NCBI GenBank assembly: GCA_963665765.1
Contig: OY762464.1
Location: forward strand, 2,601,958 to 2,665,957
Length of the DNA stretch: 64,000 bases
Source: Acidimicrobiia bacterium
GTDB taxonomy: Bacteria; Actinomycetota; Acidimicrobiia; Spongiisociales; ZC4RG35
Reading direction: 5' to 3'
Positions 40,554 through 64,000 of this stretch are shown here, one piece after another (within the stretch, counting starts at the first letter, position 1; each line of letters opens with the position of its first letter). Made by a program: the position numbers and the translations under genes. Below the pieces are notes generated by a model that saw nothing but the letters and a program-made list of their open reading frames with translations, was not told the DNA's origin and searched no databases.

Positions 40554-42566
40554 ATGCTACCGATGAGATCCCGGCACTATGACCGTCGATTATTGGAGGT
40601 CGGTCTCCGTCGGTTTCGCAGCTTTCCGGTGGTGGTGCTGGAGGGTCCCCGTACTGTGGGCAAGTCCACGCTGCTACGTGAGATTGCCCAACGCTTGTCT
40701 GCTGACATAGTTGACCTTGACGATCCTACTGTCAGGGACCAAGTCAAGGCGGATCCAAACCAGTACCTGGCTGGGCAGCGTCCGGTTCTTATAGACGAAT
40801 ACCTTCGCCTCCAACTCCTTGATCACATCAAGGCCCAACTGAACAGGGAGGGTTCTCCCGGTCAGTTCATACTGACCGGATCAGCCGGCCGCCAGGCAAA
40901 CCGGAAAGAGCTGAAGGCACTGGTTGGTCGGTTGTCCGAAATAGAAGTCCTCCCACTTTCCCAGATGGAGATAGAAGGTTTGGGGGAGAACTTTGTCGTG
41001 TCGGTATTCGGGGGCATGGAGGGTGTGATGTCCTGGGGTCGTTCCCGAACGACCCGCGAAGATTACGTCGAAAGAGTGTTGGCCGGTGGGTTTCCCCGTG
41101 TTCTGTTGAACGAGGACACTGCCGACCGTTTCCGGATCTTCAACAACTACATCGAACAGTCCCTTAGTTACGGGCTCGCCGCTGTCCGGAACGTACGTCA
41201 GCCCGAGGATGTGCAGAGGCTGTTGTTCCGGTTAGGGGCGCAGACAGGGCAGCTTCTCAACATTGCCAAGGCTGCTCGGGACATCGGGATTGCCGAGCGA
41301 ACCGCTGAGAACCACACCCGCCTGCTGGAGTGGCTCTTTTTCATCTTTCGTCTACCTGCCTGGAAGAAGACGGACAGAGGTCCTGTGGCACGACCAAAGT
41401 TGCATCTGGTCGATTCGGGTGTGGGCGGGCGCCTCCTTCGACTTACATCCGAGAGGGTTATGAGCCCTGATCCCTTGTTCCAATCCTTATTCGGAAACCT
41501 GGTCGAAACGTTCGTGGTGGGCGAGATTCGCAAGGCAATCGGATGGCTGAACGAACCATATCAGTTGGGGTACTGGCGGACGCGTCAGGGTATTGAGGTA
41601 GACCTCGTGGTGGAACGCCTTGACGATCAGGCAGTGGTCGGCATGGAGGTCAAATCGGCCTCTGGATTGTCAAGGGACGATTGGAAAGGTCTTGTCCGTC
41701 TGCGCACGGAGCTAGGGAGTCGCTTCCATGCCGGGATCGTGTTCTACACCGGAGACATGCCTTATGAAATAGATGAACGAATCTACGCTGTGCCGATCGA
41801 TAAGCTGTGGCGCGGTGAGCCCGAGACCCCCGATCGACCGCAGGCTATGGCCCCGAGCATATTGACTGCCGACGGTGACCCCCTCTCTCCGACAGTGCGG
41901 GCGGCAGCCGATGAGATGCTGGAGAGGCTGGCATTCGGTGGGGCTGCATGGTGGGAGCTGGCGATCGTCCCCTCGTCGAATGTGTCCTTCAGTGACTTCT
42001 ATTCGTCAGAAGGGGTAATGGGCGAGCTGGCCAAGGTGGTAGAGAACTCCCTTCGACTCGATCGTGGATACGGGCTGGGTAATGGCATTGACTTTCAACC
42101 AGTGGGACAATGTGTTTCTCTGATCGAAGAAGGCACTCGCGGCGTCCTCATTGACCCTCTCGGAACGATGGTGGCCATAGCAGGAAGCACCTTCTTTCGG
42201 GATCCCCGCTACCAACACAGCAGTTCGGTGACGTTTGTCGATCACTTGGCGTTGGGGGAGTGGGCGCTGGAGTTTGCTCGATTCTCCTATCGCGTCTTGT
42301 TACCCCAAGGGCAGGGATTGTCTTGGACCTTTTGGTCACGGGGCCGGTCTCTAAGGGAGGGACAACCACCACTGCAAATCCGGCCCCTCAATAGACAGGC
42401 GGTGGTGGATAACCCTCCCCATCGCGGGATCCCTCTGACGGGCGATCCGGAGGTCGATGCTTTCTATTTGATTTCCTCCTTTTATGAATGGTTCGGGATC
42501 CCGGCTGCAACCCTTGCCGAAGCGAAAGAAAACCGTGTCTCGGCCGAGGAAATCCTAAGGGCATGA
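40554..42566 (+). CDS. AAA_14/DUF4143-family ATPase with an uncharacterised ~250-aa C-terminal extension
   Basis: Walker A VVLEGPRTVGKSTLL, Walker B PVLIDEYLRL, DUF4143-like region YWRTRQGIEVDLVVE...GMEVKSASGL. Typical family members are ~400 aa; this ORF is 670 aa. Confidence 0.7.
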   Translation: MLPMRSRHYDRRLLEVGLRRFRSFPVVVLEGPRTVGKSTLLREIAQRLSADIVDLDDPTVRDQVKADPNQYLAGQRPVLIDEYLRLQLLDHIKAQLNREGSPGQFILTGSAGRQANRKELKALVGRLSEIEVLPLSQMEIEGLGENFVVSVFGGMEGVMSWGRSRTTREDYVERVLAGGFPRVLLNEDTADRFRIFNNYIEQSLSYGLAAVRNVRQPEDVQRLLFRLGAQTGQLLNIAKAARDIGIAERTAENHTRLLEWLFFIFRLPAWKKTDRGPVARPKLHLVDSGVGGRLLRLTSERVMSPDPLFQSLFGNLVETFVVGEIRKAIGWLNEPYQLGYWRTRQGIEVDLVVERLDDQAVVGMEVKSASGLSRDDWKGLVRLRTELGSRFHAGIVFYTGDMPYEIDERIYAVPIDKLWRGEPETPDRPQAMAPSILTADGDPLSPTVRAAADEMLERLAFGGAAWWELAIVPSSNVSFSDFYSSEGVMGELAKVVENSLRLDRGYGLGNGIDFQPVGQCVSLIEEGTRGVLIDPLGTMVAIAGSTFFRDPRYQHSSSVTFVDHLALGEWALEFARFSYRVLLPQGQGLSWTFWSRGRSLREGQPPLQIRPLNRQAVVDNPPHRGIPLTGDPEVDAFYLISSFYEWFGIPAATLAEAKENRVSAEEILRA

Positions 42567-42991
42567 GAACACCCAATCTCCACGACGAAACCGCTCGGCG
42601 GTTTGGGCGAAAGGCCTCCCCAAGGCGAGCCCCCGCCACCATTGACATCAGGGAGTCAGGAGTCACTGGACCGGGGGTACCCCCCACAGCGTGAACAGGC
42701 CCCAGTAGGCAATAGGGTTCGTGAAAAATAGAGTGGTCGCCCGGTTGACTTTGTCACAGCGAAGATACATATTGATGGAGTCGAACACCTCTCCCGGCCC
42801 GATCCGACGTCGTTGGGGCCGGCCCAGAGGTCACAATTCTTGGGATCGCGAAATCCCGCTTGGTAGCGCGGATCCGCGTCTCACACCCCGCCGACCACGA
42901 AAACCGCTACCGTCAACCACCCGAACAAACAACCGATTACTCAAACTTATCGGCACACCCCTCGTCGAGTAGGATGTCCGCAAAAATGGTA

Positions 42992-43015
42992 CTGGTTTAG
43001 GTTGACCTAAACCAG
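42992..43015 (-). terminator. Intrinsic terminator-like hairpin (CTGGTTTAGG-ttga-CCTAAACCAG) followed by a U-run on the minus strand
   Basis: 10-bp perfect stem, 4-nt loop, 15 bp past the stop of the minus-strand protease gene. Plus-strand CAAAAAT at 42981-42987 gives UUUUU after the stem on the minus strand. Confidence 0.55.
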
Positions 43016-43029
43016 ATCACCAGTCTGAC

Positions 43030-43986
43030 TTAGTTCGTTGGTGGCGGATTGGGGGAGTCAGCGATCGGCGGCATCACTGGTGTCTGGTGAAGGATAAAAG
43101 CCTTACCTTCGTGATTCTCGATGATCTTTATCGCGTTTGTGCCACTGAGGGTGTGCATAGTCGTGTGGTGAATGCTTAGAACGACATCTTGGAGTTCGTT
43201 GTCGTCTTCAAGACGTTCGACAACGATGCCCTTGTTTCCTGCCTGCTCTCGGTTGATTCCTTGCGAATGGGAGAGGTGAGTATTGAAATCGTTGAACCAC
43301 TCAGCGGCTTTCTTCGCCTTTTCCTGGTCGTCTTTGAGCATCCACGTTGATAACCATCGTTCCACAAGAGACTCGGCCAATTGTTGGTGAGCCTCACATT
43401 CAGCAAGGAGAGAAGTTCCGTATTGTCCCAGAATGGGAGTCCACACGGCGAGGGCTGAAATGTCCTTTTTGATTTCTTCCTGTGCCCTCGCGAATTGTTG
43501 AAAAATGGCTTGGGTTGGTACGTAACGTATTATGCCGCCGGATTGTTGAGGGATCTGCGGATCAGTTGGCCCCAGTTGGGAGTGCTCTCCCATAACGATC
43601 TTGTCGCACCCCAATGCCAACATGGTGCCAGCCGACATGGAAGCAATCGGCACAAATGCCCGGATCTCTCCAGTGAATTTGGCTCTCAGGTACTCGACGA
43701 TCCGGCAGGCTGTCTCTGCTTCGCCTCCTGGCAAGTGCAATATCAGATCAATACCCCTATCGTACTCCAATCCCCTGACGGTCTCCATGAATCCTTGGAT
43801 GTCTGCAAGTGTGATCGCAGTTTGGGGGTCGGGGTTTTGTAACCACGCGCTGTAATAGATAATGACAGGTCGTTTAGTAAGGCGATACAAATTGCTGAGG
43901 TATTTACGACGCACGCCGTCAAAATCTGGGCTTTGTCCTGGATCCGATTCGTTGAGTTCGTTAAGAATCTCACCCCAAGAAGGCAT
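43030..43986 (-). CDS. SDH/S49-family ClpP-fold serine protease (serine dehydrogenase proteinase-like)
   Basis: LILHLPGGEAETACRIVEYL...IASMSAGTMLALGCDKIVMGEHSQLGPTDPQI matches the S49/SDH ClpP-like pattern. GC ~50%. Confidence 0.65.
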   Translation of the reverse strand: MPSWGEILNELNESDPGQSPDFDGVRRKYLSNLYRLTKRPVIIYYSAWLQNPDPQTAITLADIQGFMETVRGLEYDRGIDLILHLPGGEAETACRIVEYLRAKFTGEIRAFVPIASMSAGTMLALGCDKIVMGEHSQLGPTDPQIPQQSGGIIRYVPTQAIFQQFARAQEEIKKDISALAVWTPILGQYGTSLLAECEAHQQLAESLVERWLSTWMLKDDQEKAKKAAEWFNDFNTHLSHSQGINREQAGNKGIVVERLEDDNELQDVVLSIHHTTMHTLSGTNAIKIIENHEGKAFILHQTPVMPPIADSPNPPPTN

Positions 43987-52670: not shown

Positions 52671-52743
52671 GGGCGTTTAGCTCAGATGGAAGAGCGCTTC
52701 CCTTACAAGGAAGAGGTCGGCGGTTCGATTCCGTCAACGCCCA
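52671..52743 (+). tRNA. tRNA-Val (anticodon TAC)
   Basis: Manual fold: acceptor GGGCGTT/AACGCCC (7 bp), D-arm GCTC-AGATGGA-GAGC, anticodon arm CTTCC-CTTACAA-GGAAG, variable AGGTC, T-arm GGCGG-TTCGATT-CCGTC, discriminator A. No encoded CCA. Confidence 0.85.
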
Positions 52744-53100
52744 CACCGAGGAGTCTGCGATTTATGACGCTGATAGGCTGTTTTTCCCATTTGGGTTGGT
52801 TTTGGGGGTTTTTGACCGTTTCGGAGGGGGCTGTGGCCTAGCCGGGGGGCTGTTTGGTGGTTGTCGGGACGAGGTTCCCCCGGTTTGGCGGACTGTTTTG
52901 GTTGGTTGTTCATGCCACCAGTTTTTGGTGTTGGTGGCGGTAGTTTACGGGGCTTTGGTAGTTGTTGGGTGAGTGTCCGGCAACGGGATATATAGCAGTG
53001 AACTCAAGGTTCATGGTGAAGGAACTGCCGAGGAGTTCCCGAATCGCCAGCGACAGCCCAGCCTGTCCATCTGCTCACCAAGAAACCTCATGGCGGCAAT

Positions 53101-54621
53101 GTGTGCTATTCTGGCGGTATGTCAATGACCATTGAGGTCGCCAACGTCGGCCCGATCCGGCACGCTCAACTGTCCCTTGGCAACCTAAATGTGCTGATCG
53201 GCACAAATGACACTGGTAAGACCTTTTTTGCAACGGTAGTCCATCGCCTATTGGCAGCGAGCACCGACGCATACTTCCCCGACACGGAGCCAGCGGACTA
53301 TATCCCCAAGAACATACACGATTATGTCAGGGAATTCAAAACCACTTCACGGCGAAGTGGAGGCCAAGACAGTGAGAGGGAACTTGTCATTGACGATGAG
53401 ATGCGGACATGGGCGAATGGAATAAACGAATCCACACTCCAGCGGTTCGGTAAAGCCGCACGCCGTGGGATTTCTTACGCGTATGGTGCGCCTACAGAAC
53501 GTCTCCTGCGGCAACCGCTTCTATATTCGAGGCACGAGTCGTACATGTTCATAAAGAACCTCGAACCGCGATGGAGTGTCAGAATAAAGATGGATGGTGA
53601 TAACGAAGCCGACGATTATGTTTGCGTATCCCGCCCGAACCCCGACACTTGGTTGCGTGATGTCTTCAATCCTGCCCTTATCCAGCGGCTGTCTGCACAT
53701 TACGAATTCTTCCAGTCAAAGAATAAGAACAATGAAGTTGATCCCATTCAAGACATCGAAGAGCTATGCCAGTACATACTGTACATGACAGGAGATGTAG
53801 CCTTGTTTCGTCAGTGGCCAAAGGAATGTCTTCATCTTCCCTCTGAGCGCGGCGGCATTATGCAGAGTTACCGCGGAATCACAAGCGCAGCATTGCGGAA
53901 GAGCGCCTTCGCCGGAATTGAGCCTGTCGAAATCGAACCCCTTGACGGTACCTCTAGAGATTTTTTGTCCTTCGTCGTTTCGTCTGGAAGTGAAAAGCCT
54001 CGGTTGACTTCAGATAAGAGCTATGCAAACTGGGCAAAGAACCTTGAAAAGAATCTAAGAGCAAAGATTGAACTTCTCAAAAACCCAAGTGGTCTAGACC
54101 GCATTGTAGCGACCACGCCGGAGGGCCAATTCGAACTCAATCAAACTTCGTCAATGATCTCCGAAGTCTCGCCATTCGTACTTGCGTTAAAGCATCGGTT
54201 GGGAACTCGAGACTATCTCACGATCGACGAGCCAGAGGCACACCTGCATCCGGAAATGCAAATCGAGATCGCTAAATGCTTGGTGGATCTGGCTTCAAAG
54301 GGTTTGACGATCACATTCACAACTCACTCCAATTATTTCGTTGAACAAATAAGCAATGGGATACGCAGCAGTGAACTTGAGACTCATGGCGAGGAGGAGT
54401 TGCCGCCGATTCCTCGAATTGATCCTGAAAATGTTCGCGCGCTCCTATTTGTCCGCGATGACAATGGCTGCGCCGCTATTGACGCTACGGGTGACAGTAT
54501 TGACCCGATAAAGGAAGAAACCTTCACTAAGGCTGCTCGCGCTCAATATGAGCAATCGGTTCCGCTCATTAATCGACTACTCGAGCGAGTCAACGCGACG
54601 GGCGAAGTGGCCGATCAATAG
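53101..54621 (+). CDS. AAA_21/ABC-type (SMC-like) ATPase, first gene of a two-gene defense-like module
   Basis: Walker A LIGTNDTGKTFF near the N-terminus. Distant Walker B/D-loop LTIDEPEAHLHPEMQ and H-loop ITFTTHSNYF, with a ~340-aa insert between them, as in abortive-infection ATPases (Septu PtuA, PARIS AriA, AbiLi). GC ~50%. Confidence 0.7.
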   Translation: MCYSGGMSMTIEVANVGPIRHAQLSLGNLNVLIGTNDTGKTFFATVVHRLLAASTDAYFPDTEPADYIPKNIHDYVREFKTTSRRSGGQDSERELVIDDEMRTWANGINESTLQRFGKAARRGISYAYGAPTERLLRQPLLYSRHESYMFIKNLEPRWSVRIKMDGDNEADDYVCVSRPNPDTWLRDVFNPALIQRLSAHYEFFQSKNKNNEVDPIQDIEELCQYILYMTGDVALFRQWPKECLHLPSERGGIMQSYRGITSAALRKSAFAGIEPVEIEPLDGTSRDFLSFVVSSGSEKPRLTSDKSYANWAKNLEKNLRAKIELLKNPSGLDRIVATTPEGQFELNQTSSMISEVSPFVLALKHRLGTRDYLTIDEPEAHLHPEMQIEIAKCLVDLASKGLTITFTTHSNYFVEQISNGIRSSELETHGEEELPPIPRIDPENVRALLFVRDDNGCAAIDATGDSIDPIKEETFTKAARAQYEQSVPLINRLLERVNATGEVADQ

Positions 54622-54627
54622 GTCGCG

Positions 54628-55212
54628 ATGGACACCCTGGGTTCACCATATATGAAGCCCTGTGGTCACGATTGCCAAATTTGCCGGTTTCATAAGGCAT
54701 TGGTTGATGCAGGAGCCCAATTCAGTTATTCTGACACACTACGTGAGGCCGAGTGTTCATTTACAGTTAGCACCCCCGCATACCCTTGCTGTGTAACCAA
54801 ACTCAAGGTGGATACAGATTACGCGACGTATAGACAGAGGGTGGATCCGCCGGGCCTCACAAAAATGTGCGACTTTGTGGTGGCCTTTTCAACATGCAAA
54901 GGTGCAAGATATAGTGCCATCGAGTTGAAATCGCGAGAGCCATATCTGGAGGATGCAGCGGAACAACTGAAAGAAGGACTTCATCTGATTGTAAATCACC
55001 TGGTTGACGGTCCCCTTAGGCCTGTGCTGCGGGCATACCTTGTCGTGGGTGTGATGACCACGAGGTTGATAGATATTACTCGTACTGAAGGCAGATTGAA
55101 TGTAGATGGCAGGCTCGTCCAAATTGAACTCGTTGAGTGCCTTGAATCGCTGGAAGGCTCGCCAAGTCGTGGGGAGGGTGGTGGTCCGAGGGTTCAAAGA
55201 AGCGGGTTGTGA
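54628..55212 (+). CDS. Small partner protein with N-terminal Cys cluster and a possible PD-(D/E)xK-like nuclease motif
   Basis: 6 bp after the ATPase gene. C12-x3-C16-x2-C19 cluster. CDFVVAF...YSAIELKSR resembles the D...(E)xK core of restriction-endonuclease-fold nucleases. This is inference only. Confidence 0.45.
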   Translation: MDTLGSPYMKPCGHDCQICRFHKALVDAGAQFSYSDTLREAECSFTVSTPAYPCCVTKLKVDTDYATYRQRVDPPGLTKMCDFVVAFSTCKGARYSAIELKSREPYLEDAAEQLKEGLHLIVNHLVDGPLRPVLRAYLVVGVMTTRLIDITRTEGRLNVDGRLVQIELVECLESLEGSPSRGEGGGPRVQRSGL

Positions 55213-55316
55213 CCGGGGGGTATTGAGGACTGGAGATTCCATTCCGACCCATGGATGAGGCGTAGGCAACGTTTCGTGCCAGTCCGGACGCTGCTCTGCG
55301 AGACCGTCCCGAACCG

Positions 55317-55598
55317 GTGTTGTTGGACGAGTGGCAAATAGTGCCCGAGGTGCTGGCCGCGGTGAAACGGGCGGTGGATTCCGACCGTCGTCCGGGACGA
55401 TTCCTCATAACGGGTTCCAACCGAAGGGACACATCTGATCGGTTCTGGGCGGGGACCGGGCGGGTAGTGATGGTCTACATGCAACCTTTGACAGTGGCGG
55501 AAATGCTGTGCCGCCCGAGTGGTGGGTTTGTGGATCGGGTGGTTTCGGGTGATGCGCTTACCGCCGCGGCCGGTCGAGTGTTGGATCGCGGCACGTAA
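55317..55598 (+). pseudogene. Fragment of an AAA_14/DUF4143-type ATPase gene (Walker B region only)
   Basis: LLDEWQIVPEVLAAVKRAVDSDRRPGRFLITGSN parallels the Walker-B/FILTGS block of the 40554-42566 protein. Only ~90 aa remain. Confidence 0.4.
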
Positions 55599-55718
55599 CT
55601 GTTCATATGCAACATATGTTATTCCCGCTCTCACGCGGGACACACTTCCCATATCACGCGCGTCCACCACCAGAAAGCACCGGCAGAGATTCGGACCAGC
55701 GGGGTATATTCAGAGGTT

Positions 55719-56006
55719 GTGGCAGTTGCGCCCGAGTTCCTGGGAATGAAGTTCGGGGTGGCTTACGAAAAGGACACGGAGTCCCACATCCGCATTATCT
55801 ACTGGGACTGGGCCGCCCAGAACTGTCAGCCCAGAACTGTCAGCCAATATGGGATAAACAGCCGGGCTGTTATAGAGGGATGGCTGCCGCAGCTTGGCAT
55901 GTGGGCAATCAACGACTGGGTAGAAGCACACCAGCCCGAATTGCAACAAGCCTGGGAAGACAGCCGGATGGGAAGAGTCCCCGCCTTGATCGAACCACTG
56001 GAATAG
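55719..56006 (+). pseudogene. DUF4160-like gene fragment containing a 13-bp tandem duplication
   Basis: C-terminal AINDWVEAHQPELQQAWEDSR resembles the DUF4160 tail (…EW...H.EEL..NW). CCCAGAACTGTCAG occurs twice in tandem (55811-55843). Confidence 0.3.
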
Positions 56007-56198
56007 AACCAGGTGAACCCGCCCCCGGGACACCAGGAACTGGCCGGTGGGCACTTTCAGTGATCGCCGACAGTTTGTCTTCCCCACTCACCGGCCGGTC
56101 CAGGCCAAAGGTTTGAGGTTGCGCGGACCGATAACCCTGCCATCAACCCTGCTGCTGCCCTTAGGGACGCCGTGGAAATGGAGGCTCAAGTCGGGCGG

Positions 56199-56797
56199 TC
56201 AGCGTCTCCATAAAGCGCCGGAAGTGCGGTAGCCAGCGCTCGAGTCTGCTCGGGTCCACGAGTCCGAGCAGTACAAAGAGTTCCGTCCTTTTTGGTACCC
56301 GCCTTTGCGGAAGGATGCGGTGGCATGTTTCAACGCTTGGATCACCTCCTCTTTGCGACGCTCCTCAAGTCCCTGAACAGGTAGCAGTCGATCCGGATTC
56401 AGGTCGGGAAAGTAATCTCGCAGGGCGCTGTGATCTGCAATCAGCCACGTTTCCATGCATGTGGCCATTAGTTGAGCCTGGTCATCTGAAGCCTGCCTTG
56501 GTCGTGTCCATTTGTCGTTCGCGACCAAATGCTGCCATGCGCCGGAGGAACTCGGCGGCTGATGTTGAGTTTGAACGATGGCCTCGCTATCGACCAAAGG
56601 ATGGGGTAACCATCCCCCTCCCGGAGCGCTGTCCTAAAGTTCCGGTAAGCGCGGGTCTCGGGGGCCGCAGGCGACCACCTTTGGCAGTCGCCCGACAAAG
56701 CCTGCTTGGACGAGCAGATCCCGAAAACCTCTGCGCAATTGGCTCTTGAGTGCGGCTCGGTGCCCCCGCCTCCTTCCGCATACAATACGACATTCAC
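56199..56797 (-). pseudogene. DUF4276 (RloB/AbiLii-like) gene disrupted by frameshifts
   Basis: N-terminal piece MNVVLYAEGGGGTE (TOPRIM-like VEGxTE) in one frame (56468-56797). C-terminal piece with the METWLIADHSALRDYF (E.WLLAD..AL) hallmark in another frame (56199-56597). A third frame carries the middle. Confidence 0.45.
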
Positions 56798-58047
56798 CAG
56801 CGAGTGCCGCCTATTTGTCCAGTGGTCCAGAGCTCACCCAGTCGGTATTCTTCTAGCCATCTGCTTAGACCGTCCTGGCTAAAACGCTCCATCCGTGTGC
56901 ATCCATTGTGATTCTCGAACACCACGATCGCCTCTGGTGTTTCAGATAGGGCGTCGACCAGAATGTCAGAGTGGGTGGTTACAACGACCTGCATACGTTC
57001 GCTGGCCGCAATCAGGTGCTTCGCCAGGCCCGCCACAATATCGGGGTGCAGTCCGAGTTCGGGCTCCTCGATGCAGAGCACCGGCAAGGCATTGGGGTTG
57101 TACAGCATGGTCAGGAGACACAGATAGCGAATGGCCCCATCCGACAGCCTGGTCGCGGGAATCGAACGCCGTCCGCTTTCGGTAAAGAAGATCTGAACCG
57201 ACCCACCGCCGATTACAACTTCATAGCTCGTGAAGCCTTCGTAGAGTTCCCGTAGACCATTGATGACCTGCTGTTTAGCCTCGGGAAAAGCACCCATCTG
57301 ATTGAGAACCAACCCGAGGTTGGAAAAGTCCTCTTCGAGGCGATCCGAACGCCCATCAGCAGGTTGCGATCGGCGCAGTGGAGCACCTCGGCCGAACGCC
57401 CACCCGTCGTATATCTGGATCGAGTTGTAGACGCTGGCCAGCAACGCCAGGTGGGGATAGTCAAACGGTGACCGGAGCTGCTGAAGAATCGACTGATTTG
57501 TCACATCGGGATAGGAACGCCGCGTGAGAGGCCCTGCCGGAGCATGAACGGAGCCCAACCGTACCCATCTGAGACCTGGCCCCGGGCGCAACGGCGGACG
57601 ATCCTCAGGGGAACCCGACAAGACGTCATCCTCAGACCGAGCGCGAATCTTTGCCTCCCTCGAATCCAGACAAGACTCATACAGAAGCGTGTCGGGCTGC
57701 AATGTGACCAGCTCTTTGGTCGGCCACAGTTCGGAGTCAACTGTGCGAAAGGAAATTTGATGGCCAAGTTGCATGCCAGCCGGGGAAACAACCATGTCGA
57801 GCTGCGGTGCCCCGGTCACCTCGCTCTCCCATAACCAACTTCTTGGTCCCCCACCGCGACGGACAACATCCTGAAGCTCGGTCGGAATGCTGCGTATCAA
57901 CCTGAAGACATCAAAAAGGTTGGACTTCCCAGAAGCGTTCGGCCCGATGAGCACATTGAGCATCCCCAGATGCACGGGTGAGGTCTCGGGACCAAATGAA
58001 AGCAACCCTCTTGGCCTGATCGTCTGGATCAAAGGCTGATTGAGCAT
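56794..58047 (-). CDS. AAA_21 ABC-type ATPase (AbiLi-like abortive-infection ATPase)
   Basis: Walker A LIGPNASGKSNLFDV, Walker B/D-loop LCIEEPELGLHPD, H-loop VVVTTHSD. Stop overlaps the start of the DUF4276 remnant. Confidence 0.75.
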   Translation of the reverse strand: MLNQPLIQTIRPRGLLSFGPETSPVHLGMLNVLIGPNASGKSNLFDVFRLIRSIPTELQDVVRRGGGPRSWLWESEVTGAPQLDMVVSPAGMQLGHQISFRTVDSELWPTKELVTLQPDTLLYESCLDSREAKIRARSEDDVLSGSPEDRPPLRPGPGLRWVRLGSVHAPAGPLTRRSYPDVTNQSILQQLRSPFDYPHLALLASVYNSIQIYDGWAFGRGAPLRRSQPADGRSDRLEEDFSNLGLVLNQMGAFPEAKQQVINGLRELYEGFTSYEVVIGGGSVQIFFTESGRRSIPATRLSDGAIRYLCLLTMLYNPNALPVLCIEEPELGLHPDIVAGLAKHLIAASERMQVVVTTHSDILVDALSETPEAIVVFENHNGCTRMERFSQDGLSRWLEEYRLGELWTTGQIGGTRW

Positions 58048-58266
58048 AGATCCCCGGTGGGTGACTGACGTCCCGCTCAGTATAAGCTCTCAATTGTCAG
58101 GGGGTGGAGATTGGGCCGGCGACTGTGCTTATATTCACATAACGCCAAATGCCGAGGCGATAGACAAGCTTAGATGACACTATTAAAAGCGGTCTTGCCT
58201 GTCAATAGGTGTGCCGCCTGGGTGAGTATTCTCCCCAAATTACGGGTGGGAGTTCCTAAAAGAGCG

Positions 58267-58731
58267 TCAGTTTCTGCAAAGCTTTAGGCGCAAGAGACGC
58301 CTGTGTTTTTCGGTCAGTGCTTCCCTTTTGGAGGACGCGTAGATCTTGCCGCGGGGCATGTCGATCAACTCCTTTTTGCTGAAATCGACCCTCAAATCTA
58401 CGTCGTAGGAATAAAGTAGCCTGGCACCGCTTATTTGCGCCAAGGCTAGGATGTGCCAATCGTCAGATCGAATGCGCCTATCTTCGGCTAACTTCGTTGT
58501 GAGTTCGTTGACTCTGTGGTCATCCTCGTTCCGGACTAGACCCGCGTTGATGGCTGCCGAAAGCCACTTGCGCATGGCATTGCCGCAATCCCAATACTCC
58601 TTCCGAAGCTTTTGACCACCCAGCACAACTTTGATCTTCCCATCTTCAACCTGGCTCAGGAAGAACTTTCCGGCAGTACCCACGTCCTTGAATAAGTCCT
58701 TGACGACATTCGCATCAACGATTGCGCACAT
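58267..58731 (-). CDS. PIN-like domain protein (putative nuclease partner)
   Basis: N-terminus MCAIVDANVV (PIN strand-1 Asp) with downstream acidic residues (…QVEDGK…, …NEDDH…, …SYDVDLRVDF…). 3 bp after the upstream ATPase gene. Confidence 0.45.
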   Translation of the reverse strand: MCAIVDANVVKDLFKDVGTAGKFFLSQVEDGKIKVVLGGQKLRKEYWDCGNAMRKWLSAAINAGLVRNEDDHRVNELTTKLAEDRRIRSDDWHILALAQISGARLLYSYDVDLRVDFSKKELIDMPRGKIYASSKREALTEKHRRLLRLKLCRN

Positions 58732-58734
58732 GGC

Positions 58735-60150
58735 TCAGGCGGACATGGAACGCCGCAACTCCTTCATGAAGAACTTGCGGTACCCCGCAGGGGCACCGTC
58801 GATGTTCCCCAGACGGTCCACGCTGATGGAATGGACCTGTACGGCTTGTTCCTCTCGCTTGAAGTACAGAATCGACACGTCTCGTGGCCGCAGACCCACC
58901 GAATTGTCTCGGACAGCCATCCTTACTCGGTCGATGATAAAGTCGCTGTGAGTCTCCACCACAAGTTGCCGACTGGCATTCCGCCTACGCCTAGAACCTG
59001 CGATCTCGCTGAGAAGGCTTCCGAGAGCGGCCGACGCTTTCGGATGCAGATGGACCTCGGGTTGCTGCAGTAGCACCAGCCGCCGACCGTCATGGCGCAG
59101 GAGCTCGGTGATGAGCGGAAGCACCTGACTCACCCCGTAGCCCATATCGACCAGATTGCGCATAGGACCCTTACGCTGTTTACCGGATTTTCGTAGGCGA
59201 ATCTGGAACGGAGCACTCTCGACCTTGCCGAGCCGACGTATCTCAATCTCGGTGAAAAGGCCAGCCTGTCTACCGAACTCCTGAATCCGGGTCTTGAGCG
59301 AGTCCCACTCTTTTGGTTCCCGCAGGGCCAACTGGGCGAGGTACATCGGCACATAGTCGCCCTCGGGATCCGGGGTGGTCCGAGCCGGATCGTAAGTTCG
59401 CTTAGGCTGCGAACGTACCGGAGCACTGGCGAACACCCCTCCGACACCCATGCCACCCCCTACGACACGAGGCCTTGTGCGCGCATACTTGAGGTGTTTT
59501 TCGATCTCAGACAAATCTTCAAATGAGATGGGGGGTGAACCCTTGATCGGCTTGAACCATTCTTCTAATGCCAAGTTGGTCTGACGTTCGGTGTCGAGCG
59601 CCCGTCTGAGAACCCACATTGGGGAATCAACCATAGGCAATCTATTGCTGTCGCGTCCTGGGAGATGAGGGAGATAACCATCTCGGGCGTCCGCCCAAGC
59701 TCCACGGGGACCGCCGTAGATGATGTGGGGCCCATCATCTTCACTGAACCTTTGCTCAACCCAAAACTGACCTTGTGAAACCCGACGGCGTGTGGGAACC
59801 GGTGCCGACAGATAATCAGTGAAGTCAACGTGTGTCGCCATCGCAGAAGCCTTTGCGGCGCCTTTCCGGATAGCCAACTCCATGACCGCGCCGAACTGCT
59901 CGGGTGGCCCACCCCTCGCGCCACTGCGATGGATGATCTCACTAAAGCTGCCCAGATCATAGGGAGGCTCTTTGAAATCCGGTACACGATTGAGGTACGC
60001 AATATCGACCATGGCACGGAGCATTGCCAAAAGCGAGGTCTTGCCAGTGTTGTTATCTCCGACAAGTAAAGTCAATGGTGCCAAGCGGGCGGTCTGCGAA
60101 CCAGCAAAGCAACGGTAGTTGCGGACCGTAATGCTCTTGATTATCTCCAA
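58735..60150 (-). CDS. AAA_15/AAA_21 ABC-type ATPase (DUF3696-like C-terminus), paired with the PIN-like protein
   Basis: Walker A LLVGDNNTGKTSLL, Walker B LVLLQQPEVHLHPKA, H-loop LVVETHSDF, long insert between the A and B motifs. Confidence 0.75.
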   Translation of the reverse strand: MEIIKSITVRNYRCFAGSQTARLAPLTLLVGDNNTGKTSLLAMLRAMVDIAYLNRVPDFKEPPYDLGSFSEIIHRSGARGGPPEQFGAVMELAIRKGAAKASAMATHVDFTDYLSAPVPTRRRVSQGQFWVEQRFSEDDGPHIIYGGPRGAWADARDGYLPHLPGRDSNRLPMVDSPMWVLRRALDTERQTNLALEEWFKPIKGSPPISFEDLSEIEKHLKYARTRPRVVGGGMGVGGVFASAPVRSQPKRTYDPARTTPDPEGDYVPMYLAQLALREPKEWDSLKTRIQEFGRQAGLFTEIEIRRLGKVESAPFQIRLRKSGKQRKGPMRNLVDMGYGVSQVLPLITELLRHDGRRLVLLQQPEVHLHPKASAALGSLLSEIAGSRRRRNASRQLVVETHSDFIIDRVRMAVRDNSVGLRPRDVSILYFKREEQAVQVHSISVDRLGNIDGAPAGYRKFFMKELRRSMSA

Positions 60151-60696
60151 TATGCAGCCTTTCCCGTGCTGGCCCCTTGGAGAAAGAGGCTACTCGCCCA
60201 CCGTGCCGAAGCCAGTCGGAATTGGTTGCTATGCGCTATTTGTCCCCACGGAAGGCTGGCGGGGCATACGCCGCCTCGGTGGAGGGAAAGGCCACCGTCA
60301 ATACCCAGAAGTGCCCACGGCGACCGTCAGGGTCGTAACATCCCCTGGCATCTGATTTCCCAAGAATAGCCCTATCAGGGATCGGGCGGTCGGTCGCAAC
60401 GCCGATGGGGTGGGATGGTTACAAAGACGCCTTGACGGGCAAGGTTCACGCAGGGCCTTATAGGCTAGGAACTCAGTCGGTGTCACGGCTAAGACCCAGA
60501 CGTTGTTCTTCCACCGTGGTGTCGATTCCCCGGGCTCGCTTCCACGCCAGTCTCCGTTCGAGATTCCTGGTGGTGGGTAGTCCAGCTCTAATAAGCTGCT
60601 GTTTAGCTCGCCGCGCCCGCGTCACAGCCTCTTCCATTGTCAGGACTTCCTCCGGCGGGGGTAAGACTTCTGCAGACTCCATAGCCAACTCTCCCT

Positions 60697-61105
60697 CTAC
60701 TCATTGTACCGGGGGCTGCCTTCGGGATCGGTCAGGATACATTGTCGCTCGCGAGCGAGGAACCGTTTCAGGCAGCGGATGATGTCCTTTTTGGAGAGGT
60801 CTTCGGTGGTGCGCCGAGCGACGTAGTCGATGGTGGCTGGTGGAATCGTATTCGGACTATGGCTACCCGGTATAGCGCCGCGTTGGCTTGTCGGTATCCG
60901 CCTCTGTAGAGGCAATGCCGGTTGGTCTGTCCTGATGAGGCTGGAATCGGACAGGTACCGCGCGGAGTTTGACGAATGCGGCCTCAGAACGGATCCGTTG
61001 GGGGTTGTCGCCGAACACGATGAGAAGCTCTGCTACGGAGTCGGCTCCGATGTCGTAACCGTCTCGTAGTGTTGGGGAGGCTTGGGCGGTGAGGTCATCG
61101 AGCAC
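60697..61105 (-). mobile_element. IS110-family transposase remnant (Transposase_20 region, frameshifted)
   Basis: LRDGYDIGADSVAELLIVFGDNPQRIRSEAAFVKLRAVPVRFQ matches the IS110 C-domain pattern (L.sIPGiG..tAa.Lla.iGD..rF.s...l.ayaGlaP). The adjacent frame carries …DIIRCLKRFLARE. Confidence 0.4.
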
Positions 61106-61136
61106 GGCATCATGGGAGCGGATCTCGGTGTCGAGG

Positions 61137-61290
61137 TGGAGCCTGGTTCGAGACCGCGGTCAATCAGGTCCTGGCGTCGCCAGTTGTAGATGGTCTGGTC
61201 TGACACTCCAAGGTCCTTCGACTGAGATGCAACTGACCTGCCGGTTGCCAGCAGATCCAGGGGCCTGCGACGGAACTCGGGTGGACATTT
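61137..61290 (-). mobile_element. IS3-family OrfA (HTH) remnant
   Basis: EFRRRPLDLLATGRSVASQSKDLGVSDQTIYNWRRQ matches the IS3/IS911 OrfA helix-turn-helix. Confidence 0.45.
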
Positions 61291-61803
61291 CGATACGGCA
61301 TGAAGACCCTCCTTTTCGGGGTCGGTCACACCGTCAATTCGAATAACCCGACTCCACCAAAGTGGGGGCACACCTAACCCTCCAAAAACCCGGGGGTGAT
61401 TCACGCGCATCCCCCTGACCAGGCAAAACACAAACCACCCGCCAAATTCGGGTCCGAGTTAGAAAAACTCCGGGCGAACTGGCCGTTCACCCAGCGAGTG
61501 AACCTACTCGGATGATTCAGGTTCCGTTAGGAAGCGATGGTAATAGTGGCATTGGGGGTGTTCATGTTCGCCTATGTGGTCGCAAGGATGGCACAGTGGC
61601 TTACCCGAGGTTGAACGGAGATTCGAAACCAGCGGTCGAGCCTCCGGATGGAGCTTTCATCGCGGTTAGCGCCAGCCTCTCCCATGCCTACCGCTCCCAG
61701 ATTGGTGGGGCGGTCCTGAAAAACAACTAGGCGCTGTGAGTCGGCCGTTCAGAGAGGCCGTCTCGTCATGGGGGTGTGGAAGAGTGGAAGATTGGTTTAA
61801 ATG

Positions 61804-61856: not shown

Positions 61857-64000
61857 TTACGAAGCTTCTGTTGCAACGCGGAAGATGCTGGAACCGTCGT
61901 CGTAGGACACGACCACGATGTTGGCCTGAGTCGTCGGTTGTTCATCAAGGTTGGCACCGATCAGCTTCTCGAACGCGGCCACACCGTCGACTACCTTGTT
62001 ACCTGCAGTTGTATCCGTGTCCAGGAAGACGTCGTCCGAGTCGTAGCTGTACAACAAGCCGTCGATCAGGAACCGGTCCTCGTCACCATAGACCATATCT
62101 ATGTCAGCGGCGGGGTTGGAGCTGTCGTCCGGAGCATTTTCCACCGCCAGCACCGAGGTGGCCGTAACGGTTGGGGCACCAGTGAGGTCCTCGCCGTCGG
62201 AATCCTGGATTGCTGTGTAGGTCACCCCTACCTCGCCGCCCAAGGCCGCTTGGACAACCGTAGCACGCCAACTGGCTATGCCTCTGCTGCTGATCGTCCG
62301 ACGGGCGGGATCGTCATCATCTGCGATGGTGATCAAGACCGAGTTGCCCTTGCCGGCGGGGTTGCCGTACTGGTCGTAGAACGTCACCGTGGCACGGATG
62401 GTCACCTCGTTCTTGCTGTTCCTAAGAGCGTAGTCAGGAGTACTGCCCTCACCCTTACCCGTAGATGCCCGAGAGATAGCGACGTCGTCGGCGTTGGTGG
62501 TGGCTACGGCCGAAGCCAGCGTCGGATTGGAGTCCGTCCACACGATCGTCGCTGTCACACTCTCAGATGGATCACTCGCATCGGTGGTATCAGCTTCTCC
62601 AACAGTTCCGTCGCCGTTCGCATCGGCACTGAACTCAACCGTGTCGGTCCTGTCAACATCGGTAGCGCCCTTGGTCGACTTCGGACCACTAGTGGTGTAG
62701 GTCACCTGACCGTCGTCATCGGTCTTCATCTTTGCAGGCCCCGGATGGAGGGTATTTGCACCCTGCATCACGGTCAGACTGACTTCCACGCCAGCCTTGG
62801 CCACCGGCTCACCGTCACCGTCTACCAACTGCGCGGTGAGAGTGACATCGTCACCGGAATCAATGTCCACCGTGTTGCCATCAGTGGAGTTCTTGCTGAT
62901 GTCGGTCGTGACCTTCAGGTTCACAGCATCGGTGGTGGAAGACAACGTGACAGACACATGGGGGGACGTGTCAACATCGAAGTCGTTCTCGTCGGCGTCG
63001 GCATCGCCCATCCACGCATAGTACGTGTTCATCTTCCCGTCTTCGACGGTACCTTCCTCGTAGATGTTGCCCGAAGCGTCGGTCAGCGACTCGTCATCGG
63101 TCCACGCACACTCATCAGCCTCTTCGCAGCCGCCGTCCTCGTCGAACTCACCAACCGTGTCGCTGTCGAAGGTCTTGACGGACACATCAATCATCGGAGC
63201 GAAGCTGTCATCCCGATACGACACAGCAACAGTGGGACTGAAGTCACCGAAGTCCCAGGTTTCGGAAGCCTGGATCGTCACACCGGCCGGACGTGCGTTG
63301 GAATGATCCAACACACCAGCCATGAACTCAGCCATGACAGCCCGGGTGATCGAAATATCCGGAGCATAAGACGTATCGTTGATACCCGAAACAACACCCA
63401 ACTCCCACAACGCGGTGATCGCGTCATACGCTTCCTTGGTCGAACTCTTCAAGTCGGTGAACGGAGACTCCACCTTCTTGGTCTCGTCCACATCAGTGTC
63501 GTCGTCGTCCTCGGCAGGTTTCACATCTTCGGGGGTATACCCGAACACAGTGTCGCTGTCCTCGGCCATCGGGTCCATTTTGTCCATCAACCTGGCAACG
63601 AACAACGCCATGTGACCACGTCTCACCGCATCGCCAGGCGAATAAGTAGTCGCCGAGGTGCCCTGGGTGATCTCCAGATCGGCCAACTGATTGATGGCGG
63701 TCTGCGAATCGTCGGACAAATCACCGATGTCGGTGAAACCCGCATCATCAGGATCGGAAGCCATGTCAATGCCCACCAGACCAGCCAGACGGGTCAAAAA
63801 CAGGGCCATCTGCTCACGGGTGACCGACATCAACGGCGAATAAGTAGTCGCCGAGGTGCCCTTCGTCACTCCATAGTAGGCAATACAGTCGATGTCACCA
63901 GCGTTGGTATGACCTGCGGGAACATCGGTGAAGTCCGACGAACCCACACCCACGCACGCATCGAACGTAGCCTTATAGTCCATCTTCGGGTCGTCATCAG
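61857..64000 (-). CDS. Large secreted surface protein with three N-terminal SLH (S-layer homology) repeats and Ig-like/beta-rich C-terminal region; partial, N-terminus beyond the window end
   Basis: Repeated FTDV...A(I/Y)..L...GI..G.......P....TR.QMA.FL.R SLH motifs. The ORF stays open to the window edge. Acidic Thr/Asp/Val-rich C-terminal half. Confidence 0.7.
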   Translation of the reverse strand, partial: DDDPKMDYKATFDACVGVGSSDFTDVPAGHTNAGDIDCIAYYGVTKGTSATTYSPLMSVTREQMALFLTRLAGLVGIDMASDPDDAGFTDIGDLSDDSQTAINQLADLEITQGTSATTYSPGDAVRRGHMALFVARLMDKMDPMAEDSDTVFGYTPEDVKPAEDDDDTDVDETKKVESPFTDLKSSTKEAYDAITALWELGVVSGINDTSYAPDISITRAVMAEFMAGVLDHSNARPAGVTIQASETWDFGDFSPTVAVSYRDDSFAPMIDVSVKTFDSDTVGEFDEDGGCEEADECAWTDDESLTDASGNIYEEGTVEDGKMNTYYAWMGDADADENDFDVDTSPHVSVTLSSTTDAVNLKVTTDISKNSTDGNTVDIDSGDDVTLTAQLVDGDGEPVAKAGVEVSLTVMQGANTLHPGPAKMKTDDDGQVTYTTSGPKSTKGATDVDRTDTVEFSADANGDGTVGEADTTDASDPSESVTATIVWTDSNPTLASAVATTNADDVAISRASTGKGEGSTPDYALRNSKNEVTIRATVTFYDQYGNPAGKGNSVLITIADDDDPARRTISSRGIASWRATVVQAALGGEVGVTYTAIQDSDGEDLTGAPTVTATSVLAVENAPDDSSNPAADIDMVYGDEDRFLIDGLLYSYDSDDVFLDTDTTAGNKVVDGVAAFEKLIGANLDEQPTTQANIVVVSYDDGSSIFRVATEAS

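Follow-up and report, generated by a model that had tools for sequence, protein, structure and literature searches.

A lineage-specific, partly decayed candidate defence island with ATPase-nuclease pairs beyond tRNA-Val in an Acidimicrobiia genome

Introduction

Defence islands and pairs in which a nuclease goes with an ATPase of the ATP-binding cassette (ABC) type are well known, and finding another island is in itself ordinary. In Septu (PtuA/PtuB), PARIS (AriA/AriB), Gabija (GajA) and OLD, an OLD-type ABC ATPase controls a nuclease, and these systems provide a mechanistic template for the locus that we describe here. The locus lies between about 52.85 and 61.85 kb of a 64,000-nucleotide (nt) stretch of an Acidimicrobiia genome (assembly GCA_963665765.1, contig OY762464.1, positions 2,601,958 to 2,665,957), which as a whole we call the window and to which all coordinates below refer unless another sequence is named. 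With a probability of roughly 80%, we consider it to be an anti-phage defence island that is specific to this lineage, was acquired horizontally and has decayed in part, and in which three ATPase genes are each accompanied by a gene for a small nuclease-type partner (pairs 1 to 3, in order of position).

Other described systems also bear on these pairs. PD-T4-4, a two-gene system ("ATPase, nuclease") reported by Vassallo et al. (2022), protects against phage T4; its classification is that of a PD-(D/E)xK nuclease with a P-loop NTPase. Payne et al. (2024) described HEC-03, an ABC ATPase with a VapC-like PIN protein, which defends and requires both genes, and HEC-02, an ATPase with a NERD protein, which likewise defends and requires both (bioRxiv 10.1101/2024.01.29.577857). 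In the model for Menshen (NsnA-NsnB-NsnC; Millman 2022), NsnB clamps a PIN-like domain through DUF3696, and the inPIN domains of this system are reported to lack catalytic residues (PMC12065111).

The locus and its absence from related genomes

The proposal that this region is a defence island with stacked ATPase-nuclease modules comes from a sequence-only reading of the window. It is supported by synteny in relatives, by the scores of the ATPases against models of defence ATPases, by remnants of insertion sequences (IS), by gene fragments and by the GC content at third codon positions (GC3). All the open reading frames (ORFs) named in that reading were recovered where it had placed them, including the three ATPase genes and their small partners. 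The tRNA gene that precedes the island and the six genes of the pairs are as follows (lengths of proteins in amino acids, aa).

52671-52744, plus strand: tRNA-Val(tac), terminal element of a conserved gene block; marks the synteny break
53101-54621, plus strand: pair-1 ATPase, OLD-type ABC (AAA_15/21; Pfam AAA_15 4e-17, AAA_21 2e-13)
54628-55212, plus strand: pair-1 effector, a 194-aa Cys-rich protein of predicted PD-(D/E)xK nuclease fold
56161-56797, minus strand: HEC-01B (DUF4276/TOPRIM) pseudogene of pair 2, with frameshifts near 56597-56611 and 56283-56291 in a three-frame reading
56794-58047, minus strand: HEC-01A ABC ATPase of pair 2, 417 aa, apparently intact (PADLOC PDLC04177 E = 7.5e-128; Pfam AAA_21 2.7e-31)
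58267-58731, minus strand: pair-3 effector, a stand-alone 154-aa PIN-domain protein retaining the acidic set D6, E45, D91, D110, D116
58735-60150, minus strand: pair-3 ATPase, Menshen NsnB-like OLD-type ABC (AAA_15/21; Pfam AAA_15 4e-21)

For comparison we used 13 metagenome-assembled genomes of Acidimicrobiia with 68-76% identity, obtained by a genome scan with the PGI-like protein encoded upstream of the island. The tRNA-Val(tac) gene, which is the sole tRNA that ARAGORN finds in the 64-kb window, closes a block of genes for a glycosyltransferase, a DUF5719 protein, the PGI-like protein and WhiB, and all 12 relatives with a contig that extends to this block keep it. Over at least 6 kb upstream of the tRNA, synteny holds in all 11 relatives with sequence past it, and none of these 11 carries the island genes beyond the tRNA (tblastn, E <= 1e-5, up to 9 kb), where differing ordinary genes are found (NIF3, SDR, MMPL, PspC/LiaF, ABC/FtsX, Fic). 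Thus, with the upstream block conserved and the island genes missing in relatives, tRNA-Val marks a break in synteny and the content of the island is lineage-specific. The opposite outcome, in which relatives would hold the same genes in a conserved housekeeping context, was seen in 0 of the 11. The sequence-only reading had also predicted that in an empty site tRNA-Val would be followed directly by the gene for a protein with SLH domains that lies beyond the island. There is a weak echo of this in relative L012, which has a gene for a 44%-identical SLH protein after tRNA-Val, although on the opposite strand.

Composition agrees with this picture in part. GC content is 0.64-0.67 across 46-51.7 kb and falls to 0.48-0.51 across 53.2-55.2 kb only, that is, over pair 1; the rest of the window past 55.2 kb is at 0.51-0.61, and the whole-window mean is about 0.61. 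The drop from about 67% to about 50% that had been claimed for the sequence past the tRNA therefore holds for the first 2 kb, but beyond these the GC content is only mildly low. In terms of GC3, the upstream core genes have values of 0.73-0.78, pair 1 of 0.48-0.54, pairs 2 and 3 of about 0.63 and the SLH gene of 0.70. We base the status of the region as an island on the upstream synteny without island genes after the tRNA, the deviant GC3, the remnants of IS110 and IS3 elements and the gene fragments.

The three ATPases are distantly related OLD-type ABC ATPases that have in common only Walker A and the C-terminal ABC motifs (E = 1e-6 to 1e-8). All three match the PADLOC models of AriA, PtuA, GajA and Old at 1e-9 to 1e-30, and their best scores are with the defence ATPases PD-T4-4_A, HEC-01A and NsnB. 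The likeness to Septu, PARIS, Gabija and OLD is limited to the ABC core motifs, and the effectors differ, being HNH or Toprim enzymes in those systems as opposed to the PD-(D/E)xK and PIN proteins of the window.

Pair 1, a distant relative of PD-T4-4

The pair-1 ATPase probably starts at the ATG at 53119, since its homologs begin MS(L/I)xI(E/D)V, and in the family alignment its motifs are canonical (Walker A GTNDTGKT, Walker B LTIDEPEAHLHP, H-loop TTHS). The gene for the partner follows on the same strand after 6 nt. In all 7 homologous contexts with upstream DNA, including homologs only about 29-31% identical, the partner gene begins 5-8 nt after that of a 477-512-aa AAA_15/21 ATPase. The two proteins also diverge together, with identities of 60% and 36% for the ATPase and of 57% and 29% for the partner. 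A 40-nt direct repeat (78% identity) links 52980-53019, upstream of the ATPase gene, with 54353-54392, within its 3′ third, and may be due to chance or be a recombination scar.

The description of the partner as a Cys-cluster and PD-ExK-like protein was correct. Its predicted catalytic residues are D62, D82, E99-x-K101 and Q113, and its conserved cysteines are C12-x3-C16-x2-C19, C43, C55, C81 and C171. In an alignment of 36 family members, D62, D82, E99, Q113 and C43 are invariant and K101 and C81 are nearly so, while all seven cysteines are jointly present in 23 of the 36. Where the N-terminal Cys triad is truly missing, in two members, C55 is missing too, and this joint loss hints that C12/C16/C19/C55 form a four-Cys metal site; C43/C81/C171, which adjoin the catalytic D82, are a further candidate site. 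A reading of C-x3-C-x2-C as a radical-SAM motif was rejected, as the protein is only about 175 aa long, has a predicted PD-(D/E)xK fold and has no Pfam Radical_SAM match.

The AlphaFold2 model built from the 36-sequence alignment has a predicted local distance difference test score (pLDDT) of 88.6 and a predicted template modelling score (pTM) of 0.85. The model combines a restriction-endonuclease-like alpha/beta core with the D...(D/E)xK motif, the two features that define the PD-(D/E)xK superfamily, and on this basis the partner is predicted to be a divergent member of that fold. Foldseek found no significant match for the model in PDB or BFVD, sequence searches of PDB with the partner profile and the ATPases returned chance or core-motif matches only, and the 194-aa protein has no Pfam, NCBIfam or PADLOC match at E <= 0.01. 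The nuclease family is rare, with 9 clusters among 5.8 billion, and a full profile search of 1.84 billion gave 60 representatives, each a short protein that stands alone.

With respect to named systems, the best PADLOC matches of the ATPase are PD-T4-4_A (4.8e-24, in two stretches only) and PDC-M47A (6e-21). Independently, the partner family matches PDC-M47B best, with 10 of its 36 members, and then PD-T4-4_B, with 4 (the best at 1.6e-3). A genuine PD-T4-4 from an E. albertii plasmid, used as reference, scores 2e-258 over the full length of A and 5e-107 for B. When profiles were compared with hhalign, the pair-1 ATPase family matched PD-T4-4_A with a probability of 99.3% (E = 8e-21) over 142 of about 500 columns, and the pair-3 ATPase family, as a control, did so with 98.1% (E = 7e-14) over 104 columns. 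The nuclease families, with PD-T4-4_B represented by a 5-sequence profile, matched with a probability of 57.8% (E = 1e-4) over 73 columns, in an alignment that pairs the catalytic motifs K(M/S)CD(F/L), (E/D)xKS and QL.

Pair 1 shares with PD-T4-4 the two adjacent, co-directional genes with the ATPase first, and also their sizes, an ATPase of about 480-500 aa followed after 1-8 nt by a nuclease of about 195-210 aa. Nevertheless, the ATPases align only over the N-terminal ~70 aa and the C-terminal ~140 aa, and PD-T4-4_B lacks the N-terminal Cys cluster, whereas the pair-1 family has seven conserved cysteines. The hosts differ as well, with pair 1 in Actinomycetota-type metagenomic genomes and PD-T4-4 in integrative and conjugative elements and small plasmids of enterobacteria. 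By PADLOC, pair 1 would go uncalled. The earlier statement that the first pair matches no named system therefore needs to be qualified, as both genes point to PD-T4-4/PDC-M47, the nuclease weakly, with a match of the window protein that is below significance. From these alignments, pair 1 appears to be a very distant, Cys-rich sister of PD-T4-4/PDC-M47 that would work like one, and we do not file it as a member.

The neighbours of pair-1 homologs elsewhere include genes of Type I restriction-modification (R-M) systems, a CBASS-like cluster with IS110, Bil genes and RES toxin genes. For instance, in another genome, L002 (3512-7690 and 10809-18108 of its own sequence), a homolog of the pair-1 nuclease with 85% identity lies beside a CBASS-like cluster (Cap17-like, QueC, SMODS, Ogg-HhH), in a region that also holds at least 5 IS110/ISL3 transposase genes. 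The ATPase of this copy of the pair, which is 85-88% identical overall, is broken and split into two ORFs. Near the homologs in two related genomes, L001 (17291-20221) and L003 (15464-16609), there are BilA/BilB-like genes, a gene for an HTH_3-Peptidase_M78 regulator and a HEPN_RES_NTD1+RES toxin pair, surroundings that suggest a larger variable defence region.

Pair 3, between HEC-03 and Menshen

The PIN-like nature of the small partner of the third ATPase, which had been read from the sequence alone, was borne out. The protein has 465 homologs, many of them carrying PF01850; a profile of the family finds only VapC in PDB, and weakly, and 0 of 29 members match HEC-03 or any PIN model of PADLOC v2 at E <= 1. 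To judge by its acidic residues, it looks catalytically competent. In the window, 3 nt separate its gene from that of the ATPase, and in all 67 metagenomic loci where the upstream DNA was long enough to tell, the two genes are adjacent and on the same strand, the ATPase gene coming first and ending 6-69 nt ahead of the PIN gene. At least 414 relatives of the pair occur in JGI metagenomes.

In the PADLOC ranking, the pair-3 ATPase is closest to NsnB (2e-41), followed by PDC-M55A (1e-31) and the HEC-03 ATPase model (1.3e-22). Its Pfam DUF3696 match (3.6e-4) has 21.2 bits against a cut-off of 22, and the C-terminal tail is strongly conserved in the alignment. Walker A is intact, but Walker B is non-canonical (LLQQPEVHLHP), and 20 of 21 family members have the pattern hhhhQQPE. 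With HEC-03, pair 3 has in common the two-gene architecture of ABC ATPase and PIN protein and the gene order, although its PIN protein has no match to the HEC-03 PIN model and its ATPase is nearer to NsnB and PDC-M55A. With Menshen, it shares the best match of its ATPase, the DUF3696-like tail, a PIN-fold partner encoded immediately downstream and a degenerate Walker B, which reads EN in Menshen NsnB and QQ here. In contrast to Menshen, pair 3 has no NsnA (DUF262/ParB sensor), neither in the window nor at 34 homologous loci. NsnC joins an inactive PIN domain to a distinct effector domain at its C-terminus, while the pair-3 partner is a bare PIN protein with D-E-D-D-type acidic residues. No third gene family is conserved in those 34 loci, from which we conclude that NsnA does not belong to the module, and a Pfam search of the ORFs upstream of the ATPase (60150-60800) found no match. 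A canonical three-gene Menshen was rejected for pair 3 on the grounds that an NsnA-like gene is absent from the 34 loci. As far as these comparisons go, pair 3 represents an uncatalogued family that combines an HEC-03-like architecture with a Menshen-like ATPase.

Homologs of pair 3 are also embedded in operons with helicase, methylase or DUF499 genes, which is the same signal of embedding that led to HEC-03. They occur between a helicase and an MmeI-type methylase, or beside DUF499, an MTES_1575 restriction endonuclease-helicase or a DNA methylase. For example, the homolog in L126 (25-8459) lies between a helicase gene and the gene for a 1334-aa MmeI/Eco57I-type methyltransferase, and those in L091 and L102 adjoin DUF499 ATPase genes, and in L091 the PIN gene is directly followed by a further paralog of the ATPase. 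These three loci are Hma-like or Type ISP-like operons with the module embedded.

Pair 2 and the gene fragments

Pair 2 corresponds to HEC-01 of Payne et al. (2024). The ATPase matches HEC-01A from end to end (residues 6-417 against profile positions 4-393 of 393), and the end of its gene, at the stop codon, runs into the start of HEC-01B, the same overlapping arrangement as in HEC-01. The claim that a DUF4276 gene in this pair is frameshifted proved right: the HEC-01B fragments score 98.6 and 15.9 bits with PADLOC, and a frame-corrected reconstruction reaches 155.5 bits (E = 3.2e-46) over profile positions 1-199 of 202. Thus, both HEC-01 models are matched over their full length after frame correction, and the difference from HEC-01 lies in the two frameshifts of the effector gene. 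To all appearances, pair 2 is a pseudogenised HEC-01 member whose effector is inactive.

Between pairs 1 and 2 lie two fragments.

55317-55598, plus strand: partial ATPase gene of the AAA_14 (DUF4143) type (Pfam AAA_14 2.1e-9, matching positions 67-129 of a 129-position profile)
55719-56006, plus strand: DUF4160-like gene fragment (Pfam DUF4160 E = 0.006, below cut-off)

Both had been listed in the sequence-only reading; the DUF4143 ATPase fragment stands at the E-value given, and for the DUF4160-like one the match is weak. The first comprises the C-terminal half of the AAA_14 domain only. It was considered as a recent copy of an intact paralog at 40554-42566, which was rejected at 28% identity. 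The second holds a perfect 14-nt tandem duplication at 55815-55842 (GCCCAGAACTGTCA twice). A unit of 14 nt does not make up whole codons, so each copy is read in a frame of its own, and the duplication is likely an inactivating slip.

Boundaries and surroundings of the island

The edges of the island are marked by the following features.

52757-52848, no strand: ancestral G/T-rich spacer, with 72% identity across 94 nt to what follows the tRNA in relative L006 (E = 3e-8)
about 60712-61144, minus strand: IS110-family transposase remnant, C-terminal part only, broken across frames
61033-61431, minus strand: IS3-type OrfA remnant (HTH_Tnp_1 at about 61141-61284, Pfam 3.2e-6), at the distal island edge
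61857-63983: SLH-domain protein gene, distal to the IS remnants

The IS110 and IS3 remnants that had been noted at the far edge are both present, and the former is recovered by tblastn with the IS110 transposases of L002 at 33-62% identity (E down to 1e-25, residues about 205-348, in several frames). Integration at the tRNA, in contrast, was not demonstrated. No integrase ORF was found, and the 3′ end of the tRNA, searched as a 24-mer and a 16-mer with up to 3 mismatches, is not repeated anywhere in the window, including 61.4-61.8 kb, where an attachment (att) site had been expected. A search for direct and inverted repeats over 52-64 kb likewise gave nothing relevant to an att site. Furthermore, the spacer at 52757-52848 is homologous to the post-tRNA spacer of L006, which places the junction of the island more than 100 nt past the tRNA. 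These three results (no integrase, no repeat of the tRNA 3′ end and about 100 nt of ancestral sequence after the tRNA) speak against a classical integrase-mediated insertion into the tRNA. A far border outside the window is conceivable only if the SLH gene is also part of the island.

The sequence directly 3′ of the tRNA (52745-52960) is strongly G/T-rich and A-poor, with an AT skew of about -0.2 to -0.25, and could be a terminator or a regulatory element. In the SLH gene, a perfect 28-nt direct repeat (63637-63664 and 63835-63862, spaced by 198 nt or 66 codons) would fit a protein repeat that was duplicated recently. GC content is also low, at 0.54-0.58, in a second patch at 40-44 kb, which precedes the F420 genes cofE and cofD immediately, contains two genes and may be another small acquired insert (40554-43986).

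40554-42566, plus strand: intact 670-aa AAA_14+DUF4143 ATPase
43030-43986, minus strand: ClpP-like SDH-type serine protease

Possible mechanism

Regarding how the modules might act in defence, what would trigger them, what they would cut and which complexes they would form, we infer that they belong to one architectural class, in which an OLD-type ABC ATPase senses or regulates and a small nuclease executes. By analogy with Septu, PARIS, Gabija and Menshen, an oligomer of the ATPase would hold its nuclease in check, in module 3 probably via the conserved C-terminal DUF3696-like tail. A phage-derived cue would then alter the nucleotide state or the conformation of the ATPase, and the nuclease would be released or activated; the PD-(D/E)xK enzyme would cut DNA and the PIN enzyme RNA, and the infection would stop. 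For module 3, the QQ form of Walker B suggests a switch that binds ATP but hydrolyses it poorly, and not a hydrolytic motor.

A more detailed and quite tentative proposal concerns pairs 1 and 3 jointly. Pair 3 could be an uncatalogued, widespread defence family and the free-standing sister or ancestor of the NsnB-NsnC core of Menshen, in which a hydrolysis-impaired ATPase clamps an active PIN RNase through its DUF3696-like tail without a dedicated DNA sensor. Pair 1, for its part, could be a rare effector subfamily with a minimal PD-(D/E)xK nuclease that holds one or two Cys-ligated metal centres. If so, such centres could make the activity of the nuclease depend on metal or redox state.

Alternative explanations

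Several observations count against a defence island, or at least do not help it. No integrase and no att repeat were found, as described above, and a scan for promoters and terminators gave no enrichment over shuffles and is uninformative. The relatives used for comparison are just 68-76% identical at the protein level, and part of the lost downstream synteny could come from ordinary rearrangement. The pair-1 partner and the PIN protein were not found in phage, plasmid and IMG/VR collections. Moreover, the window nuclease matches PD-T4-4_B weakly (E = 0.048 over the catalytic segment, with a probability of 58% between family profiles), pair 2 is by its frames decayed, and HEC-01 itself gave no defence in the sole published assay (bioRxiv 10.1101/2024.01.29.577857).

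Three other explanations were weighed. The whole region might be the non-functional debris of a degraded integrative element or a pile-up of transposons, whose intact-looking pairs are no longer expressed or active. The two frameshifts of HEC-01B, the AAA_14 and DUF4160 fragments, the IS110/IS3 remnants, the missing integrase and att site and the 85-88%-identical copy of pair 1 with a broken ATPase in L002 would all fit this explanation, but the ORFs of pairs 1 and 3 have their full length and can be aligned with those of homologs from one end to the other, all their catalytic and Walker motifs are intact and their gene junctions are kept at 3-6 nt, so we find it unlikely. Much the same low probability goes to the idea that the pairs are selfish, toxin-antitoxin-like addiction modules, with the nuclease as toxin and the ATPase as antidote, that ensure post-segregational killing and have no anti-phage role. 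It is true that AAA_21 carries the annotation "putative AbiEii toxin, Type IV TA system", that the PIN protein resembles VapC toxins and that the genes are tightly coupled in modules that hop between loci. However, the related architectures that were tested (PD-T4-4, HEC-02, HEC-03, Septu, PARIS) protect against phages, and the modules are found within R-M/Hma-like operons and beside CBASS and R-M genes, not on plasmids. A toxin-antitoxin role and defence by abortive infection are, in any case, not mutually exclusive.

The sequence-only reading had also named a finding that would speak against it, namely that the ATPases are ordinary ABC-transporter or recombination subunits. Housekeeping proteins of this sort, whether of ABC transporters or of RecF/RecN/SMC-type or NucS-type repair, in normal chromosomal surroundings, might be seen in the weak NCBIfam matches to GlnQ, CbiO, FtsE and RecF, in the transporter ATPases that are the sole PDB sequence matches of the pair-1 ATPase and in the Pfam NucS_C matches of 4 of the 36 partner-family members (E 0.009 or weaker). 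The NCBIfam matches, however, cover the Walker and signature motifs only and are far below the curated cut-offs for ABC transporters and RecF (e.g. 21.6 bits vs 379), genes for a permease or a substrate-binding protein are missing, 11 of the 11 relatives reaching the same locus lack the genes there, and the family is extremely rare and patchy. On the strength of the scores, of the relatives without these genes and of how rare the family is, we exclude a housekeeping role, to which we assign hardly any probability. A horizontally acquired and partly decayed defence island thus continues to be the explanation that we favour.

Significance

What the locus offers beyond the island itself is a pair of intact candidates for experiment, pairs 1 and 3, both of which PADLOC v2 fails to recognise. 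The Cys-rich pair 1 is a great rarity, though its known homologs now suffice for a confident model; pair 3 is common in environmental bacteria. By its position between HEC-03 and Menshen, pair 3 is a possible link between two named systems, and it makes the origin of the inactive-PIN adaptor of Menshen from a PIN effector directly testable. Finally, the island is a record of the gain and decay of defence genes in Acidimicrobiia that are uncultured and have been little studied.

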